63,194 bases of DNA, filler included, from Rhabdomonas costata (GCA_019059605.1; 55 parts of 55 records of this genome joined end to end with filler, not necessarily neighbours in it), one strand, 5' to 3'; numbered from the whole stretch's first letter, positions 6,807-57,327 are shown. Made by a program: numbers and translations. The notes: generated by a model from the sequence alone, not told the origin.

Positions 6807-7036
6807 NNNNNNNNNNNNNNNNNNNNNNNNNNNNNNNNNNNNNNNNNNNNTTAATTAATTAANNNNNNNNNNNNNNNNNNNNNNNNNNNNNNNNNNNNNN
6901 NNNNNNGTGGGGGGTTTAATTGCAATCTTGGACCACTATTGGTCAATGTGGAGGATGGATGCCCCCTCGTCTGCTGGCGTTTAATTGCAATCTTGGACCA
7001 CTATTGGTCAATGTGGAGGATGGATGCTCAACATAC

Positions 7037-7957
7037 GTCCAGCAGGTCGTTGATCAGGTACAGCAGCGCACTTCCACTGCAGCTGATACAGTGAGTGCAC
7101 TCGCGCTGCTTGGGGTCCAGGGTCGTGGTCTCCAAAAGGATCTGAACGAATATAAAAAAACAGATTTCGAATGAATTCAGAAAACGGACAAAAATGACAA
7201 CCAGCAGACCCCCAAGAGAGATCCTCCAGGTCTTTCGCAGGAATCTCGACGGCGGGGTGCAATTGGGTGGGGTGTGCTCTATGTGAACGAAGGACGTGCT
7301 GCCTCAGGAAGCATAACTTAATCCCCTTGGCGACCTACTTATCCTTATTCGAACACCAAAGAACATTTCCCAATTTTCATCTGTAGTTCTTTTAACTCAT
7401 TTATCGACTTCCCCCCTCTGTCACGAGACGGCACTCTCGGAAGTGCGTTCTTTCCCACCTCGCTTGCGTGAAGGCTGTGCCTATTGTCAGCGGTATGCCC
7501 CTCAATCTCTCAAGCTTCCCAAAATTTCGTGATGCGAAAATTCCACCGAAAAGGCACTTATAAAAGGGTTTAGAGACCCCGAGCAGTTCCGGTTAAGTCA
7601 CTAAAAAGCCCACCATGCTGCATTATTCATTCCATATCTATTTTCCAGAAATCAAAGCTGAATTGGGCGGATCTTGGTTGGGCTCGTCATCTCAATTCCA
7701 AGTCATATGCGTATATCCCGAAAAAAAAAACGAGCACCAGCAGTGACCGGCAACTCCATTCATCCAAACGATTTATCGTTCAGTTCGAGCAGGTTCTGCC
7801 AGTTAATGGGGGAAGCACGATGAAAACATTCCTCGGCCATCCCAATGCACGCCGTAAGCGGCGTCCGCATCTCGTGGCTCACCATCGCAAAGAACATCTC
7901 CTTCGACCGCATCAACTCCCGGGCCTGCTCCTCGCTCCGCTGGATCTCCGCCGCGCG
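7037..7957 (-). CDS. Sensor histidine kinase, HisKA domain; exons 7957-7832 and 7141-7037
   Basis: Spliced translation RAAEIQRSEEQARELMRSKEMFFAMVSHEMRTPLTACIGMAE|ILLETTTLDPKQRECTHCISCSGSALLYLINDLLD, containing the H-box SHEMRTPL and the LINDLLD motif. Missed by the ORF track. Confidence 0.92.
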
Positions 7958-8092
7958 NNNNNNNNNNNNNNNNNNNNNNNNNNNNNNNNNNNNNNNNNNN
8001 NTTAATTAATTAANNNNNNNNNNNNNNNNNNNNNNNNNNNNNNNNNNNNNNNNNNNNTTTGTTGTGATCCATCCTGTTTTCACAGGGAGATG

Positions 8093-8189
8093 ATTTTTGG
8101 TCCTTGATGACAGCGAATCTCACATGAATCTCTCATGATGACACCATGAGAGATTCATGTACGATTCGCTGTCATCAAGGACCAAAAAT
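8093..8189. repeat. 97-bp near-perfect palindrome (45-bp arms, 2 mismatches, 7-nt loop)
   Basis: ATTTTTGGTCCTTGATGACAGCGAATC..ACATGAATCTCTCATG / CATGAGAGATTCATGT..GATTCGCTGTCATCAAGGACCAAAAAT. Confidence 0.9.
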
Positions 8190-8775
8190 TAAGATCTATA
8201 TGAATGAATACAAAGCAAGTTATTTTTTGTGCCCGTGTGAGTTTCTTATTCGGTTTAATCCTATTTTATGGCTACAAAAAAGCTTGTTGGGGGCCTTTTG
8301 GACTTAGTACTTCGACATTGAGGGCAAACTGTCCTGTTTTTCTGCTGTTTTTCTGGAGAGTCCGCTGGTAAGCGAGCATTGACTTTGGTTATCATTGCTG
8401 TTTGATGTGAAACGGCAGTTTAATACAGCATTCTGAGATGGAAAAAAACCCCTGGCATCCCGCCACTCGGCCGTTCGTGGACAGAATTAGACTGTTTTTG
8501 CTGTTGAACGGTTGTGTATTGTCTTGCAGCGCACACGTTTTCCTGTGTTTTTTCCGTTCCATCGGTGCAGAATTACTTGTTGTTTGGTTGACCCAGCCTT
8601 TTGTGGCAGTTTTGAGAGAAAGGCGGTTTTCGTGCGGTATGAACGTCGTTAAAAATGGCCCGTATGCAGTCGAAAGCCACCCCTTTCTCGAAAAACTCAA
8701 GAATTAGTGCCGCTAAGTCAATTTATTGTGCGTGTGCTGCTTAAAAATCACCTTTTTCGAAAAATAAAAATCAAG

Positions 8776-8943
8776 ACAACGTTTTGCAAAACTGGATTGA
8801 ACACCCCCCCCTCCCCCAGTCATGGTCAATGTTGGGGCATATCGGTAGTTTGTCGTAGGGAGTTCATTGTTGCCGGGACGAATTTTCAACATTGAAGTAT
8901 TGGGGTGAAAGGGGGGTGTTCAATATGTTTTGCAAAACGTTGT
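8776..8943. repeat. Imperfect inverted repeat (about 34-bp core arms, about 100-bp spacer) related to the 10364 repeat family
   Basis: ACAACGTTTTGCAAAACtggATTGAACACCCCCC (8776) vs GGGGGGTGTTCAATatGTTTTGCAAAACGTTGT (8911-8943), with an inner TCAATGTTG/CAACATTGA pair. Confidence 0.8.
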
Positions 8944-9213
8944 ATTTGGGGTGGAAGGCTGGAATTGGCTGTTTTTAAGGGGTTTCGGGGTGCATTTTGG
9001 GCGCATTTCGGGTGTTTGCCTGCGGCGTCGCATGGCTCCGTGCCAACCGCCTACAAAGGCATTATTTTGGCACAAAAGGTGTGCTGGAGCACCTCTGAAG
9101 GCCCGATTTTAGCNNNNNNNNNNNNNNNNNNNNNNNNNNNNNNNNNNNNNNNNNNNNTTAATTAATTAANNNNNNNNNNNNNNNNNNNNNNNNNNNNNNN
9201 NNNNNNNNNNNNN

Positions 9214-10363: not shown

Positions 10364-10693
10364 GCCCCATTGTGTAACAACATTGACTACAGGGGGAAAG
10401 GGGGGCACGTATGCTTTGCACAGCAACCGCAAAAGTGCCCAAATCGGCTCTTTCCAGCTAAAAAGGCCAAAGTTAGGGGTAAAATGATGGTTTTTAGGCC
10501 AAAATTGATGAAAAAAGAAGCAAAGTACAAGTACACGCGGATGAGTGGGGTGGCGACGACACAAAAAAATTACTTGGGGGTAAGCCTCGTCTTGGGGAGG
10601 GTAAGAGTGGTTCCGGTGACGGAGAAGCAAAAAGATCTTGAATTATTGACCCTTTTTTACTGTGTGATAGGGCATTTTAAAATCGAGCTTTGT
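10364..10693. mobile_element. Terminal segment of an interspersed repeat (putative DNA-transposon end), copy 1
   Basis: Aligns by eye with 17281-17562 (shared AGTGGGGTGG, AAAAAATTACTT.GGGGTAA, TTTTTTACTGTGTGAT.GGGC, AATCGAGCTTTGT). Similarity stops abruptly after AATCGAGCTTTGT in both copies. Confidence 0.75.
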
Positions 10694-10707
10694 CTATTAT
10701 TATTACA

Positions 10708-11363
10708 ATGTGTGGAATTTTTATTTACAATGGTACAATTCATACAATTGAATCATTACAAAAACATTTTAATAAAATACAAAAAAGAGGTCCTGATCAT
10801 TCTAAAATAATGAATGTAGCATCTGATTTAATTTTTGGTTTTCATCGTCTTGCTATTGTTGATATTTCTGACAAAGGAAATCAGCCATTTTTTATAAATG
10901 GTATTTATTTAGTAGCAAATGGAGAAATTTATAATCATCTTGAATTAAAACAAGAAAATGATTTTATTACTTATTCACATAGTGATTGTGAAATTATTAT
11001 TCATATGTATCTTAAATATGGAATCGAATATACAATTAATCAATTAGATGGTGTATTTGCTTTTGCTTTATATGATACATTAACAGATCGAATTTGTGTT
11101 GCTCGAGATCCATATGGTGTAAGACCTTTATTTGTTGGAACTTCTGATAATTTCGAAGTTTTTTACGGCTCAGAGCTAAAAGGCATTAATGATTTGTGTC
11201 AATATGTACGACAATTTAAACCAGGATGCTATACAAATTTTGTAAATGGTACTTTAGAAATAGAAGAAAAACGTTATTATGAATATATATATCCAACTTT
11301 AAAAATAAATGAAGAACAAATTTATTTTAAAATTAATGAACTTTTAACTGCATCTGTAAAAAA
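10708..11363 (+). CDS. asnB: Asparagine synthetase (glutamine-hydrolysing), N-terminal glutaminase domain; intronless, AT-rich, truncated by a fold-back artefact
   Basis: MCGIF start with Ntn Cys2, then RGPD, FHRLAIVD, GNQP, NGEIYNH, SDCE, LDGVFAF and ARDPYGVRPLF motifs. GC is roughly 25-30%. 11356-11415 is the reverse complement of 11107-11166. Confidence 0.95.
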
Positions 11364-13081
11364 CTTCGAAATTATCAGAAGTTCCAACAAATAAAGGTCT
11401 GACACCATATGGATCNNNNNNNNNNNNNNNNNNNNNNNNNNNNNNNNNNNNNNNNNNNNTTAATTAATTAANNNNNNNNNNNNNNNNNNNNNNNNNNNNN
11501 NNNNNNNNNNNNNNNTGTTTGGAAATTGATATTCAGCAATGCTGAATATCAATTTCCAAACAAGAAGGAGGCCGAAGGACCAAGGAAAAAAGCACACGGT
11601 GAACTGAAGCAACAATGTGCACACACACACACGACACCTGGGGACCTTCTCGCGCTTTCCCAATCCCTCCCTCACTGTACATCCCGCGATTGAGCGTGCT
11701 CCCTCCCATATACAGCGGCCCCAGGCGATAAAGCAACGCATAAAATCTGATTCTAAAAGAGAAAAAGAGAGAGAGCGCGCAAGCAGCTGACGAGAAGGTA
11801 GGGAGGCACGCAGAATTCCAGTGAAAGCAGGCTTCGCCGGATTACAAAGGGCAGGACATCAAAAGCGGACGAATCGAGAGAGCGAGAGGCACGGAGAGTT
11901 GACAGACATGTGGGCAGAAAGAAGTGAAAGAAACCACGAAGCAGCACGGCTCAAGGCACAACGGAGAGGCGCACTGCAGCCAGGCAAGCCCCACCGAAGA
12001 CAAGGGATGCGGGGGAAGGAGGGCACAGGGTACACCCAATTTCTCACGCGCTGAACTCCTCCCACTCTCTCTGTCTGTGAAATCTTTGAACGCCTGACGC
12101 TGGGTGATGACAGAGAAGGGAGGCAAGCGGAGCGAATGTAGGCGTAGAGCAGAAAGCACACGTGGAGGGCAGAGGACAACGTGAATGGGGTGCCGACAGA
12201 AAAAAGCCCTCCACGTATGGAGCACGACACTGTACAGACAGGACAATTAAAAAACTGGTCGGCAGGGACTCTGGAAGCAAGTGGCTGGCACAAAGCATCG
12301 TAGATGACGAATCGACTTATTCATGAGGCCACGTCAGCGCAAATCAGAGGAGCTCATATGATTAAAGGGATCAGAAGAACCAAATCAATAAAAAAAAGCT
12401 CCTCAAACAATGCGCACGGCGTTGCCCTCAAACAATCCTCAAACAATGCCCACAAAGGCGTCCTCCGTGAAGCCCAACCTTAGGGCTGGCTCCCCGCCCC
12501 ACACCACCGCCCCGTTAACTGCAAAAGCCACGGTGCCCCCCGTGGGGTCGTTAGGGTCACTGCGGTNNNNNNNNNNNNNNNNNNNNNNNNNNNNNNNNNN
12601 NNNNNNNNNNTTAATTAATTAANNNNNNNNNNNNNNNNNNNNNNNNNNNNNNNNNNNNNNNNNNNNGTTGTGGTTGCGAGTGTTATTATCCATTGTTCAT
12701 TGTATATTACCTCTATCAGAGAAATACCGTATATCTGAGAAATACTCGCATCTCATCGTTTGGTACCATTTCTCGTTGCCTTCCTTTGCCTCTTTTGGTC
12801 CTTTCGTCTATGTTATCGTAAATTTCTCAACGGCGTGCGCAAGAAGATTCAGCATTCCGTGTCATCACCCGTTCCAGGCCGAGAAGACTGAAAGTGGATC
12901 CTACCATTTGGAAATTACACGTGATGTGGATTGAGAGCGGAGCAGTGAAGATCGGCCTCGTTGGAACCCTTCAGCACCACAAGTAAAAGAAACTTGTAGG
13001 ACTCCTCTGCTTGTCACACGGGCAGGGGTTTGTTTTTGTGGGAAGGGAGCTGTCGTCTCTGAATGGAGAGAACAGGAGAAC

Positions 13082-48580: not shown

Positions 48581-49612
48581 CTGCTTCTTTGGGGGATATT
48601 GGCGGGGGTTCTTTCTACAGTGCTGGTCGAGCGGTGGGTGGAACTTCACGATGGTCTGGCCTCCTCATACCTCCGCAAGCTGAGCTGCCTGGGCCTCCTG
48701 AAACTCCTTCCGGTCACGCTCTCTTTGTTATTGCAGGGATTGAATTAGAATACATGCACCAATCTCTGACCGACAAAAAGCATAATCGAGAAATGAAAAA
48801 TGAATTGGATGGGGACTGACTGCTTTGTGCACCAGGCATTTGAACGCTATTTGCTGTTTGCTTCGTTGCCATTGCTGTTGCCGGTTTGTTGCACTGGCTG
48901 CTAAAGGCTCTTATTTTTGAAAGCGAACCGATCCATAGTCTATTTGGATCAATGGATGTGGGCCATTGCACCCCCCACCTCCAAAAAAAAGAGAATATGT
49001 ATCGCTCTGCTGTCTTGCAGACCTCGCACGTCTGGCGACTGAGCACCAGGCATTCACGTTGTCCTTTCACACGGCTCGCTTCAGTCGCCATTTAAATTAA
49101 CGATTGACAAATCGATTTCAAAAGGTGCCATCGTTGCGGAAAAATGGACCTTCTCACGCTCTGCAAATCCTGTTGTTTTTTTTACAGTAATCATTGACTA
49201 CCATAATGAGTTTGGAAGTACTTCACCACCAAAACGCTTCATCTGGGAGAGTCATCTGGGGTATCCCGCCACCGACGGAGAGAGAAGTTTGATCTCTGTT
49301 TGAGGGAAAAAATGTTGCTTGAAATTAGGGAAACCCTCAAAAAATAGTGATTTGGATGGAATACCAAAAATCCAGTTCCCCCCCCACCCNNNNNNNNNNN
49401 NNNNNNNNNNNNNNNNNNNNNNNNNNNNNNNNNTTAATTAATTAANNNNNNNNNNNNNNNNNNNNNNNNNNNNNNNNNNNNNNNNNNNNGGTGGGTTGTG
49501 AAGGCAGCAAACCCAGAACCATAAGAACTCCCTTTCTTCTGAGCAAACGCCTTCAAAGGAAAGGGAGTTCTTATGGTTCTGGGTTTGCTGCCTTCACAAC
49601 CCAAGCCTCAAA

Positions 49613-50540
49613 GCATGTGACGGGCTCACCGATGATATGATCCGGGCCACCATCGAGAACGCCAAGGGCACCCGCTCCGCTTTGTTCGTGCCGGAGCAGT
49701 GCTTTGAGCTGCTCGTGAGGCAGCAGCTGCCGAAGCTCGAGGATCCCTGCCAGCGGTGCGGCGACAAGGTTTTGGACGAGCTGCAGCGGATGTGCAAGTC
49801 GAGCGAGAAGGAGCTGGGACGTTTCCCTAAGCTGCGGTTTCCACCCCCTTCCGTCCCGTCCCGTCCTGTACGTATTCCTGTAATTGCAATTGTGATTTCT
49901 CCGAAACCCTGCCCATTCTCCAAATATCAATGACCAACAGGGCTTCCGCTGATGCCCATCTCGACATTTCCACAGATGGCCATTACGAAATGCACTGTAC
50001 GGTGGCCAGGAAGCAAAGGCTCAAGGAGGGATTCTGCCCACCAGCTTACATAGCAGCGGCTCACTGAAACGGGGTAAGTGTAAAATGCCCTTCCTGGCAC
50101 TGAGCATGAAAGCACGGATTATCGTCTCCATGAAGCAGTAGCAGGTACAGAGTTCTCGGGCGCAATCACAAAAAACAGCAACCAGCGATGTGCCTGGCCA
50201 TGGTCCTTACACATCGGTGCAGGAGGCGGGTTGCCCCTCCCAAGCCAGTCTCACCCCAGATGAGCCAGCGACCCGGTTCGATGTTTGAACCCCGACTCGG
50301 TGGACTAACGCCCGAGGGACGATGCCATCCTCCAAACTACCATTAGAACTTTTCTTCGAACCGAAGTCCCCTTTGCTGCGCCGGAAAGGGCAGGTGATCA
50401 TTATACAGTCCCGCATCAACCTCCTGCCTATTCAGGGACCGCGTTGCGGAGGAGGTCTCTCGCCTGCTGCGCTCCTTCCTGGTCCCCCTGCGGGATTTCG
50501 TGCGCAACCTGGTGCAGATCGAGCTGGCGTACAACACCAC
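49613..50540 (+). CDS. Dynamin-related protein (Vps1/Dnm1-like), middle domain; exons about 49613-49836 and 50436-50540
   Basis: DGLTDDMIRATIENAKGTRSALFVPEQCFELLVRQQLPKLEDPCQRC...RFPKLR|DRVAEEVSRLLRSFLVPLRDFVRNLVQIELAY; GT-AG intron 49837-50435. Confidence 0.92.
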
Positions 50541-54560: not shown

Positions 54561-56625
54561 CTGTGGTCGACATTCGGGTTCCGTTTGTATCCATTGTTCT
54601 TGTTTATGTTGTCTGAAAAAAGTCTCGCTTTTTGTCAACAAGTTAACAAGCTGCAGATGCGGGAAATTGGATGTGCATCCTGATTGCTACCACTTCTTCT
54701 TCACTACGGTGTACGATGCTTCGGCCCCCGTCGCGAGAGCACCCAAAACCACGCCAACTTGCAATCTAGGGTGCCTTTGCGACAAACGCCAAGTACTTGA
54801 TCTCGCAGATAGAAGGTACAGGACGATCCATTATGTCCTCCAGGACAGAGTATTGATAGAGTGCAAGAGTTGGTCTTCCGCTGCAATCTCAAACAAAAAG
54901 TGCCACAAGTGTCCACTAGTCAGTTTCTTGTTTCAACTTTCTCTACGTCACCGTGCTACTGGGAGGGACCTCAGTAAACAACTGGAATGCGTTAATAAGT
55001 TATAAATTCCAATTTTTGAAATTTATGAATCTTACTAACAGGAAAACTTTTCCTCTACCACTCCCAAAGATTGTTCAAACTGACCGCTACGTGAGAGTGA
55101 TCCCCACCCAGGCGCTGCTTCACAACCTGCAACACCCCACNNNNNNNNNNNNNNNNNNNNNNNNNNNNNNNNNNNNNNNNNNNNTTAATTAATTAANNNN
55201 NNNNNNNNNNNNNNNNNNNNNNNNNNNNNNNNNNNNNNNNTGTTGTTCGCTGCGCATTGCGGGAAAAGTTGAACCAGTTTATTTTTGTTGGCACTACTTC
55301 ATCTCCTGCCTAGGTGCTTCACTGGTTGTTGCCCTTTTATCATGAAAAGGCCCCGTTTAGCGTCCAACATTGCATGGGGTGGGGGGGGCGTAAAGGAAGT
55401 TATGCAAAAAAATACTAATCCGTTTATTAGGTCGATTTTTTTTTGGATCCTCTGAACTCACATGACAACAGTGCTCACAGGGTTTCGATCAAGCAGGGGT
55501 GTGTGTGTGTATTGTTTAACAATTTCGATTTTTTCGACTTTCGATTTTGATATGAGTTGGGAGGTTGAGACGCTTCTCCGTTGAGCACCACTGATAGTTA
55601 CCATTGCACCCCGGTCACTTTTTTCCGGTGCAAACAGGTGTCAGGTGCCTCTAAACGCACTTAGGCTTGAGGTTAGACACACACTAAAGGGGTGGGGGTG
55701 GGTGTTTTGACCACCAACCCCCTCTCATACACGATAGCCCTACCCTGACGCGAACTGTGTTAAAACAGCTAATCACGCCCGAGGTGGCAGTGGCTCAAAC
55801 CAAAACAAACATAAGAAGCACACTGCGCATACACAAGTGTGATGGCTGCGGCGAAGGTGCCTCGCAACCATCGCAACCAAGTCACAGTGGAGGAAGAAGA
55901 GCACTGAAGAGGGTACTGCTGTTTCAACAGCCTGCCAGTGCGCTGCAGAAATGTTTTTGACAGGCTGGTGGTGCTACCGCCTTCGGTGGTCAGCGCAGAA
56001 ATCGACATGTATCGAGCATGAGATTTGAACCTTTGATCATTTCAACCTTTTGAACTAACCAAGCATAGCAAAGGTTCCCCCACGCAAACCTCGATAGAAC
56101 GCACTGACGCAGGTCACCCAACTGCTCTGCCGCGGATGCTTGTTTTCCTTGCCACCCTCGTTGTTTGCGAAGGAGTACAGCCATTCTCCTGCGTGGCATA
56201 CCATATCCGTATCTTGGAATTCCACTTCCTTTTGATCTTCCCCAAAAAGACCCTACAATTCAACATCATGCAGTCTGTATGACCCACAAACNNNNNNNNN
56301 NNNNNNNNNNNNNNNNNNNNNNNNNNNNNNNNNNNTTAATTAATTAANNNNNNNNNNNNNNNNNNNNNNNNNNNNNNNNNNNNNNNNNNNNTTGTTTTGG
56401 TACAAGGAAATGTGCTTGTGCACAATGGAATGAGTTTGTTTGGTTTGGGAGTGCCAGTGGCACGGCAGCTTGAGCGGGCTGTGGAGGCCGGGGCGGTGTC
56501 TGGGGTTACAACTACGGAGGTCAGGTTGAAGGTATACCTCAACACTCTCTTATGGAGCGCTGGCGTAATATTGAATTTATCAAAGAATTTGCAAGACAAA
56601 ACTCGCTGAAGGGCAGGCGACATAC

Positions 56626-56885
56626 ATCTCACTGTAGCTCAGCAGGTCGCTCAGGTGCAGGGGATCCTCCTCATGGTCCGTGCCGATCTTCTCAAAGCCT
56701 CCACTGCTCTGCCGCGACGGGCGGGCCAGCATGTAGTCGTCATCACCGCCCATAAACACCAGAGGCCGCTTGTGCATCAGGCGCTCCACGAGGTCATCTG
56801 GCTTCATCGTGCGGTAGAAGGTCTTCTCGTACTCGGAGCCGTGGCTTCGCTTGACCTCCAGGAATTTACTCAACAGCCCCCGGAC
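56626..56885 (-). CDS. Exon of a MavL-like/DUF4804 protein (putative ADP-ribose-binding macro-type fold)
   Basis: FLEVKRSHGSEYEKTFY...RLMHKRPLVFMGGDDDYML...GGFEKIGTDHEEDPLHLSDLLSYSEM matches FL..Kr..Gs..Ek..Y, kRPl.F....D.y.L, gfe.iGt..E..pl.l.d.lSYdEm. Confidence 0.8.
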
Positions 56886-57327
56886 CTTCTCTCTGTGCCC
56901 ACAGAGAGGTAGAAGGAGGAGGGAGGCCACACTTCGGCACCAAATCAATGACACTGGATAACAAAGGTATCGGTTGCTCTGCATACACATCCCTGCCTCA
57001 CAAGCCACACAAAACCGACGAACACGACTCAGTGCCTTATCTGACAAATTGTGACATAATTTATTCACGACAGCCGCTCACGCATGCGATGAAAAGGTCC
57101 GGTTCTGAAGCCGTTTCCTTGGCTTAATTGAAAGAGAGGAGCGAACACTCGAGCACACACACATACACGCACACAGGCCAGACCACACCACACAAAATTC
57201 TACTTCTGCTTCTTTCAGATGTTCAGTTTAAAACAATAGATTTTCTCCACATAGAAACCATACACACCGAACCCAACTGTTCAGCTGGATCCTGAGAAGA
57301 ATATGGATACTCACTCAGCACTGTACG

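Follow-up and report, generated by a model that had tools for sequence, protein, structure and literature searches.

Conventional introns of euglenids are bordered by GT/GC-AG, and for Euglena gracilis it has been described that the donor (GTGTG) pairs with U1, while the intron ends remain unpaired (PMC11170887). Nonconventional euglenid introns have variable borders and a structure that brings their ends together (PMC4770533). The rule reported for them consists of complementary triplets at positions +4 to +6 and -8 to -6, mostly CAG/CTG, which are set off from the borders by spacers of 3 nucleotides (nt) at the 5′ end and 5 to 6 nt at the 3′ end (PMC12501133; PMC4770533). Intermediate introns were defined by one canonical border together with a stable end-joining structure (PMC4770533). 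Introns that start with GA have been described outside this lineage. In the copepod Eurytemora affinis and the tunicate Oikopleura dioica, GA donors are supported by RNA data and constitute at most 3.2% of the supported sites, and rare GA-AG introns were reported for other eukaryotes (Frey and Pucker 2020, PMC7072748); a U1 variant was proposed for the GA-AG introns of these two animals (PMC7072748). In several dinoflagellates, GC/GA donors are reported for 25 to 74% of the introns (PMC7789003) and are therefore not rare in these organisms.

For the euglenid Rhabdomonas costata, a draft genome of 36,105 contigs longer than 1 kb (N50 of 1194, GC content of 51.6%) has been described (Soukal et al. 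2021, PMC8219788). According to this report, the DNA came from sorted cells and was subjected to PCR-type whole-genome amplification, which was uneven, and sequenced at a coverage of 10 to 20x (PMC8219788). Here, we compare with these systems a histidine kinase gene copy of R. costata in which a predicted intron begins with GA.

The kinase-bearing piece and its splice junction

The window, i.e., the whole stretch of DNA that was analyzed (63,194 bases), does not represent a single locus. It comprises 55 unrelated pieces of 1045 to 1056 bp each, connected by 54 spacers in which runs of N surround TTAATTAATTAA, and the GC content of the pieces mostly ranges from 0.43 to 0.59. The histidine kinase feature is located entirely within the piece at 6907 to 7957 (1051 bp), on the minus strand. 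Since the pieces are unrelated, the neighbors of this piece are uninformative about its context, and only 6907 to 7957 bears on the finding.

On the minus strand, the piece starts with a partial exon (7832 to 7957), which comprises 42 codons up to the piece edge (RAAEIQRSEEQARELMRSKEMFFAMVSHEMRTPLTACIGMAE) and encodes the first half of a HisKA domain. It contains the phospho-acceptor motif expected for HisKA (SHEMRTPL) and ends with ATT GGG ATG GCC GAG. The exon end is followed by GAATGTTTTCAT, and the hexamer GAATGT at the 5′ splice site (7826 to 7831) displays a G at 7831 and an unusual A at 7830. The predicted phase-0 intron of 690 nt (7142 to 7831), which was placed by homology and lacks significant pairing of its ends, closes with a T-rich tract and the acceptor CTGTTTTTTTATATTCGTTCAG (7142 to 7163), both read from the sequence. 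Directly after TATATTCGTTCAG, the second kinase exon begins with ATC CTT TTG GAG at 7141. This exon (7037 to 7141) is complete, with 105 nt and 35 codons, and encodes the second half of HisKA, ILLETTTLDPKQREC...INDLLD; its 35 codons read ILLETTTLDPKQRECTHCISCSGSALLYLINDLLD. After its last codon GAC (Asp), at the point where the paralogs go on with FSKIQ, the canonical donor of the next intron, GTATGT, is found at 7031 to 7036. The 5′ part of this next intron (6907 to 7030) ends at the piece edge and contains, 3′ of the second kinase exon, a 52-nt direct repeat (6911 to 6962 and 6976 to 7027) with 98% identity and a spacing of 65 nt. The GC content was 0.66 for the first exon, 0.46 for the 690-nt intron, and 0.58 for the second exon. 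At third codon positions (GC3), it reached 0.93 and 0.83 in the first and second kinase exons, respectively, and 0.85 and 0.91 in the two verified dynamin exons of the window described below. No match to the 690-nt intron was found in the other pieces of the window.

The junction was established by homology. The Pfam HisKA profile (PF00512) matched the first exon over profile positions 2 to 25 (E value of 1e-8; 35.5 bits, above the cut-off of 26.9) and residues 2 to 35 of the second exon over profile positions 26 to 59 (E value of 0.004; 17.7 bits, below the cut-off when taken alone). An enumeration then covered all GT, GC, GA, and AT donors between 20 nt upstream and 60 nt downstream of the first boundary and paired them with all AG acceptors between 200 nt upstream and 30 nt downstream of the second, with both frames kept open. 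The GA at 7831 and the AG at 7142 formed the only enumerated pair that yielded GMAE-ILLETTT, and the join GAG/GAATGT...TTCAG/ATC (slashes mark the borders) alone restored the HisKA family sequence without a gap. All 77 residues of its product could be aligned with P0007, an R. costata transcriptome protein, and no gap was needed (85.7% identity, 131 bits). Use of the GC at 7837 as the donor resulted in a product that had lost Ala-Glu, while use of the GC at 7816 led to an insertion of ECFHR; these products showed 2 and 5 gap positions, respectively, in comparison to P0007. The GT at 7827 was in frame solely with acceptors located more than 150 nt farther upstream, which would add more than 50 unrelated residues. 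A micro-exon combined with this GT was rejected, since no additional residues separate GMAE from ILLET in the paralog mRNAs. When the borders are slid leftward by 1 nt or 2 nt (GG..CA and AG..TC), the mRNA stays the same; among these three registers, a canonical 3′ end is present in GA..AG alone.

These results agree to the base with the exon borders of the initial annotation, which had been drawn from the sequence alone (GCC GAG at 7832, ATC CTT TTG GAG at 7141, and a gap of 690 nt). The HisKA spacing that had been invoked for the GMAE-ILLET join is likewise reflected in the continuous profile positions on the two exons and in the gapless alignment with P0007, and the GT 4 nt downstream of the border (7827), described as phase 1, can indeed be combined only with acceptors whose use would introduce more than 50 unrelated residues. 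We also arrive at the central claim, namely, that a GA donor at 7831-7830 is forced by homology: the family sequence was not reproduced with any canonical donor, and the paralog mRNAs are continuous at this position.

Only two complete introns could be placed by homology in the window, the kinase GA-AG intron and a GT-AG intron in a dynamin gene. The dynamin exon at 49604 to 49837 was 100% identical over 78 amino acids (aa) to R. costata RCo046004, which identifies the DNA as that of R. costata; a dinoflagellate origin, considered at first, was rejected on the strength of such protein identities. The verified GT-AG intron that follows (49837 to 50435; 599 nt, phase 2, CG/GTTTCC...CCTATTCAG/G) showed no pairing of its ends, and the exon 3′ of it was 92% identical to RCo046004 over 37 aa, with the mismatches located at the ends of the match (at the intron junction and the piece edge). 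For a tally of donors, the 150 longest of the 719 stop-to-stop open reading frames (ORFs) of at least 50 aa were scanned against Pfam. Seven of these 150 had a match with an E value of 0.01 or below, and four were above the curated cut-offs (AAA_5, GATase_7/6, MavL-like, and Dynamin_M). A 35-codon stretch with a GC3 of at least 0.8 was present in 77 ORFs, which occur in sense/antisense pairs and correspond to approximately 30 candidate exons; the 47 of them that were new to the Pfam scan gave one weak match and none above the cut-off. Most coding sequence in the window has no recognizable family.

Several further features of the window were observed. Near the start of the piece at 8058 to 9113, two 48-nt arms that are 94% complementary and 1 nt apart form a palindrome (8093 to 8189). 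This palindrome could be genuine, or it could be a hairpin-type chimera that arose during whole-genome amplification or assembly. The piece at 10364 to 11415 has a GC content of 0.32, compared to approximately 0.5 elsewhere, and contains an uninterrupted ORF of 237 aa on the plus strand (10681 to 11391) with GATase_7 and GATase_6, i.e., glutamine amidotransferase domains, resembling asparagine synthetase. This piece probably stems from another organism or compartment rather than from the nuclear genome of R. costata. An ORF on the minus strand (56583 to 57077) matched the Pfam family named MavL-like ADP-ribosylhydrolase (PF16062) with an E value of 3e-21. The window yielded 0 matches to a 15-nt dinoflagellate spliced-leader motif (up to 2 mismatches allowed), 0 matches to the R. 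costata spliced-leader fragments of 10 and 14 nt taken from PMC8219788, and 0 matches in an Rfam scan for U1, U6, and spliced-leader RNA genes.

Sister copies of the donor and GA-AG introns of R. costata

Protein searches gave 6 matches among 44 candidates with the first exon as the query and 1 match among 8 candidates with the second exon. Neither query retrieved an exact transcript-derived protein for the GA copy; the best named matches were 83 to 86% identical. The nearest named proteins, RCo016899, RCo016900, and RCo016905 from Rhabdomonas costata (EukProt EP00906), comprise two matches and a cluster-mate and, with an identity of just 83 to 86%, are considered paralogs of the GA copy. The first exon was 83% identical to the R. 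costata proteins P0004 and P0007, and the second exon was 86% identical to P0004. P0004, P0005, and P0007, which are transcriptome derived, read CIGMAEILLETT (GMAE-ILLETT) straight across the junction. The R. costata proteins were predicted from the transcriptome only and not from the genome (PMC8219788). Because they thus derive from mRNA, the continuous CIGMAEILLETT is direct evidence that the family mRNAs are joined at the proposed junction. In P0007, HisKA forms one stretch (residues 474 to 539; profile positions 2 to 66; E value of 1.5e-19). P0005 and P0007 exceed 600 aa; in these proteins, HisKA and the start of HATPase_c lie behind a long N-terminal part for which Pfam gave no match.

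Four further proteins (P0001, P0002, P0003, and P0006) turned out to be genomic open frames on short contigs that read through the exon end into the intron. These sister copies matched the first exon up to GM(A/V)E and continued with V-C in three cases and with A-C in one, compared to E-C in the GA copy. As Val is encoded by GTN and Ala is encoded by GCN, the homologous donor is GT in three sister copies, GC in one, and GA here. In all five genomic copies, the donor is followed by NTGY, so that TGY at +4 to +6 is common to all. Over the four sister comparisons, 128 of 132 positions (97%) were identical within the last 33 exon residues, while only 6 of 16 were identical within the first four read-through residues past the exon end. 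Conservation therefore stops at the boundary. This defines where the exon ends without recourse to the HisKA profile, and the same pattern indicates that constraint has acted on the exons during most of the period following the divergence of the copies. The HisKA exon is present in at least five distinct genomic copies, and 6907 to 7957 is best explained as part of one member of a multicopy family of putative membrane sensor histidine kinases of R. costata. In the sister copies, GT-AG and GC-AG introns homologous to the predicted kinase intron occupy the same codon boundary. The presence of GT or GC at the same donor in sister copies was not covered by the initial annotation, and a GT/GC/GA series at one homologous donor within a gene family is a useful new point.

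The hexamer GAATGT differs from GTATGT, the donor of the next kinase intron, at position +2 only. Compared to the U2 type of intron, the GA at 7831-7830 deviates from the 5′ dinucleotide GT/GC. The 3′ AG is preceded by a pyrimidine-rich (T-rich) tract and occurs as CAG. The extended donor also conforms to the type, with ATGT at +3 to +6 and a G at +5 that fits the consensus, as in E. gracilis, and the intron shares its position with undoubted GT/GC-AG introns (three GTN donors and one GCN donor). Judged by these features, the intron is of the conventional type with a variant at +2 and is neither nonconventional nor intermediate.

GA-AG borders are already tabulated for R. costata, albeit only in the supplement of the published genome study. 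Whole-file counts of the intron spreadsheet gave 4549 entries for GTAG, 4912 for CTAC, 308 for GCAG, 326 for CTGC, 90 for GAAG, and 95 for CTTC (PMC8219788). Noncanonical rows are listed twice, in Table S2 and again in Table S3, and 5 more GA-AG entries occur in Table S5, from which the number of GA-AG rows was calculated as (185-5)/2 = 90. Given the stated number of 1164 noncanonical rows (PMC8219788), the total amounts to approximately 11,259 rows, which represent transcript-by-intron entries and not unique introns. By our own arithmetic on these tables (PMC8219788), GA-AG accounts for approximately 0.8% and GC-AG for approximately 5.6% of the rows. The same halving led to approximately 61 rows for CA-AG, 45 for GG-AG, and 7 for AA-AG, so that GA-AG was the commonest of these counted classes. 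In Table S5, 5 of the 26 read-supported noncanonical introns in genes with homologs are GA-AG (four GAAG and one CTTC) (PMC8219788). The share of GA-AG is thus higher after read support (5/26) than before (approximately 90/1164). The authors' manual inspection retained 7 of the 26 cases and none of the five GA-AG introns, for a reason that is not stated (PMC8219788); a histidine kinase is not among the 26 annotated cases (PMC8219788). The main text of the study does not mention GA-AG and does not treat it as a class (PMC8219788). A literature search for GA-AG and euglenids returned nothing on euglenid introns, and the term GA-AG is absent from the main text of three euglenozoan intron papers, including PMC11170887 and PMC12501133. 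According to the initial annotation, the 5′ splice site is relaxed in this organism. The GC-AG and GA-AG shares of the rows and the five read-supported GA-AG cases partly support this view; the relaxation is real but modest and is already in print.

Proposed productive splicing at GA and competing readings

We propose that a conventional phase-0 intron of the U2-spliceosome type, 690 nt in length, interrupts HisKA in the GA copy. In this intron, A replaces T at +2 (GAG/GAATGT), with retention of the other signals, namely, the exon end AG, the G at +1, ATGT at +3 to +6, the T-rich tract, and CAG. The ordinary spliceosome would remove the intron, possibly at reduced efficiency, and the kinase intron would belong to the class of approximately 1% GA-AG introns tabulated for R. 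costata. We assign a probability of roughly 0.55 to this reading, i.e., that the DNA is correct and that the spliceosome productively removes the intron at the GA donor. The GA copy would accordingly have to be transcribed and its transcript spliced at GA. Since only 231 coding nt are visible, the intact frame constitutes weak evidence of function. In the intron tables of PMC8219788, the sole contig name containing "length_1051" belongs to a GT-AG row; if the pieces of the window carried such names, no assembled transcript would have been mapped across the kinase intron, and this argument is weak because of that assumption.

A broader proposal is more tentative, and we consider it somewhat more doubtful than the removal of this particular intron. 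The R. costata spliceosome may accept an A at +2 of an otherwise consensus AG/GAATGT and splice such introns productively. The kinase family would then represent a natural allelic series of GT, GC, and GA, and the conventional introns of euglenids would include GA-AG as a third regular class. If this is true, the series could be used to measure how the euglenid spliceosome reads position +2, in a lineage with a second, nonspliceosomal mode of intron removal, and the GA-AG class would so far have been buried among the "nonconventional borders" of the published tables.

The strongest competitor is a dead or crippled donor. In that case, the base would be real, but the exchange of T for A at +2 would block correct splicing, and the copy would be a young pseudogene or give rise to transcripts with a retained intron or a shifted frame. 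A change from T to A at +2 is a classic inactivating splice lesion. With GT in three sister copies and GC in one, a recently dead donor in one paralog has to be regarded as a serious rival, and the presence of several near-identical family copies makes the loss of one tolerable. The missing exact transcript-derived protein for the GA copy fits this explanation, as does the fact that none of the GA-AG cases was confirmed by the curators of PMC8219788. However, both exons are open and show a high GC3 (0.93 and 0.83). The exon is 97% conserved in comparison to the sister copies while the start of the intron has diverged, so any inactivation must have been recent. The enrichment of GA-AG among the read-supported R. 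costata cases (5/26, in contrast to approximately 90/1164) also argues against a dead donor. We consider a dead donor less likely than productive splicing at GA, though of real weight.

Much less probable is an error in base calling, amplification, or assembly, whereby the true base at 7830 would be T and the intron would be an ordinary GT-AG intron. A single substitution restores the donor GTATGT, and the published draft was obtained from unevenly amplified DNA of sorted cells at 10 to 20x coverage (PMC8219788), which is relevant if the DNA of the window was prepared likewise. The palindrome at 8093 to 8189 is a possible artifact elsewhere in the window. On the other hand, a consensus error at a given base would be expected to be far rarer than the approximately 0.8% of rows with GA-AG, and the rest of both exons looks undamaged.

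We likewise regard it as very improbable that the intron is a nonconventional or intermediate euglenid intron, whose removal would depend on structure, would probably not involve the spliceosome, and would not require recognition of GA. The host is a euglenid, R. costata has such introns (PMC8219788), and one of the borders is noncanonical; moreover, the downstream exon starts with a purine, in agreement with the rule published for Euglena (PMC12501133). Yet none of the three sliding registers contains the defining motif: the triplets at +4 to +6 and -8 to -6 are TGT/TCG in the GA..AG register and ATG/TTC and AAT/ATT in the slid registers, and the rule calls for complementary triplets of the CAG/CTG type. 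Nor do the intron ends pair better than shuffled ends. The end-pairing duplex reached -4.4 kcal/mol for 20-nt ends and -9.8 kcal/mol for 40-nt ends, values that were matched or surpassed by 26% and 24% of 500 shuffles, respectively, and the published test, a fold of the intron ends (10 nt, a U7 linker, and 10 nt), gave -2.5 kcal/mol, a value attained by 9.5% of 1000 shuffles. An intermediate intron combines one canonical border with an end-joining structure; here, the canonical 3′ AG is present, but such a structure was not found. Furthermore, the homologous sister introns have GT or GC donors. The least probable reading is a GC donor located 6 nt upstream (ATG/GCCGAG, 7837) with the same acceptor, giving a kinase without Ala-Glu. 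Although it provides an in-frame GC-AG join and GC-AG accounts for approximately 5.6% of the R. costata rows, it leaves a 2-residue gap relative to every paralog and scores lower (122 bits versus 131 bits), and the TGY that the five copies have in common at +4 to +6 of the GA site is missing from GCCGAG.

Significance and comparison with known systems

If the GA copy is spliced, it would constitute a clean, homology-anchored example of a donor with A at +2 in a euglenid, for which the sister genes with GT and GC serve as internal controls. If true, this would help to separate spliceosomal introns with variant dinucleotides from the structurally defined nonconventional ones, which are pooled as "non GT/GC-AG" in surveys. 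Gene finders for euglenids should admit GA donors in the AG/GAATGT context. If the donor is dead, the piece represents a young pseudogene in a multicopy family. As GA-AG is already visible in the supplementary tables for R. costata, the gain is incremental either way, and introns far stranger than GA-AG introns are known in this organism.

Among the systems with GA donors, the GC/GA-AG introns of dinoflagellates share the GA with the kinase intron, whereas R. costata is a euglenid and not a dinoflagellate. A G after the 3′ AG is typical of dinoflagellate introns. By contrast, the first exon base after the AG of the kinase intron is A, so that neither the host nor this base conforms to the dinoflagellate-type GN-AG intron. 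The resemblance to the GA-AG introns of E. affinis and O. dioica extends to the flanking bases, as their GA is described as being flanked by an upstream AG and an A at +3, just as in GAG/GAA here (PMC7072748). These animals belong to an unrelated lineage, and GA donors reach up to 3.2% of their supported sites (PMC7072748), compared to approximately 0.8% of the rows in R. costata.

The nonconventional introns of euglenids, as described by Milanowski (2016, PMC4770533) and in PNAS (2025, PMC12501133), share with the kinase intron the host lineage and a noncanonical 5′ dinucleotide. Unlike them, the kinase intron has neither complementary triplets nor an end-joining structure. It resembles the conventional euglenid introns in its homologous position, in the G at +1 and +5, in the pyrimidine tract and the AG, and in the absence of terminal pairing, and it differs from them by the A at +2. 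The tract is T-rich in the kinase intron, whereas a C-rich tract is described for E. gracilis (PMC11170887) and is also found in the dynamin intron of the window. The closest counterparts are the GA-AG rows of R. costata itself (Tables S2, S3, and S5; PMC8219788). While those rows rest on transcripts and the GA copy of the kinase is known here from genomic sequence, both come from the same organism and display the same type of border.
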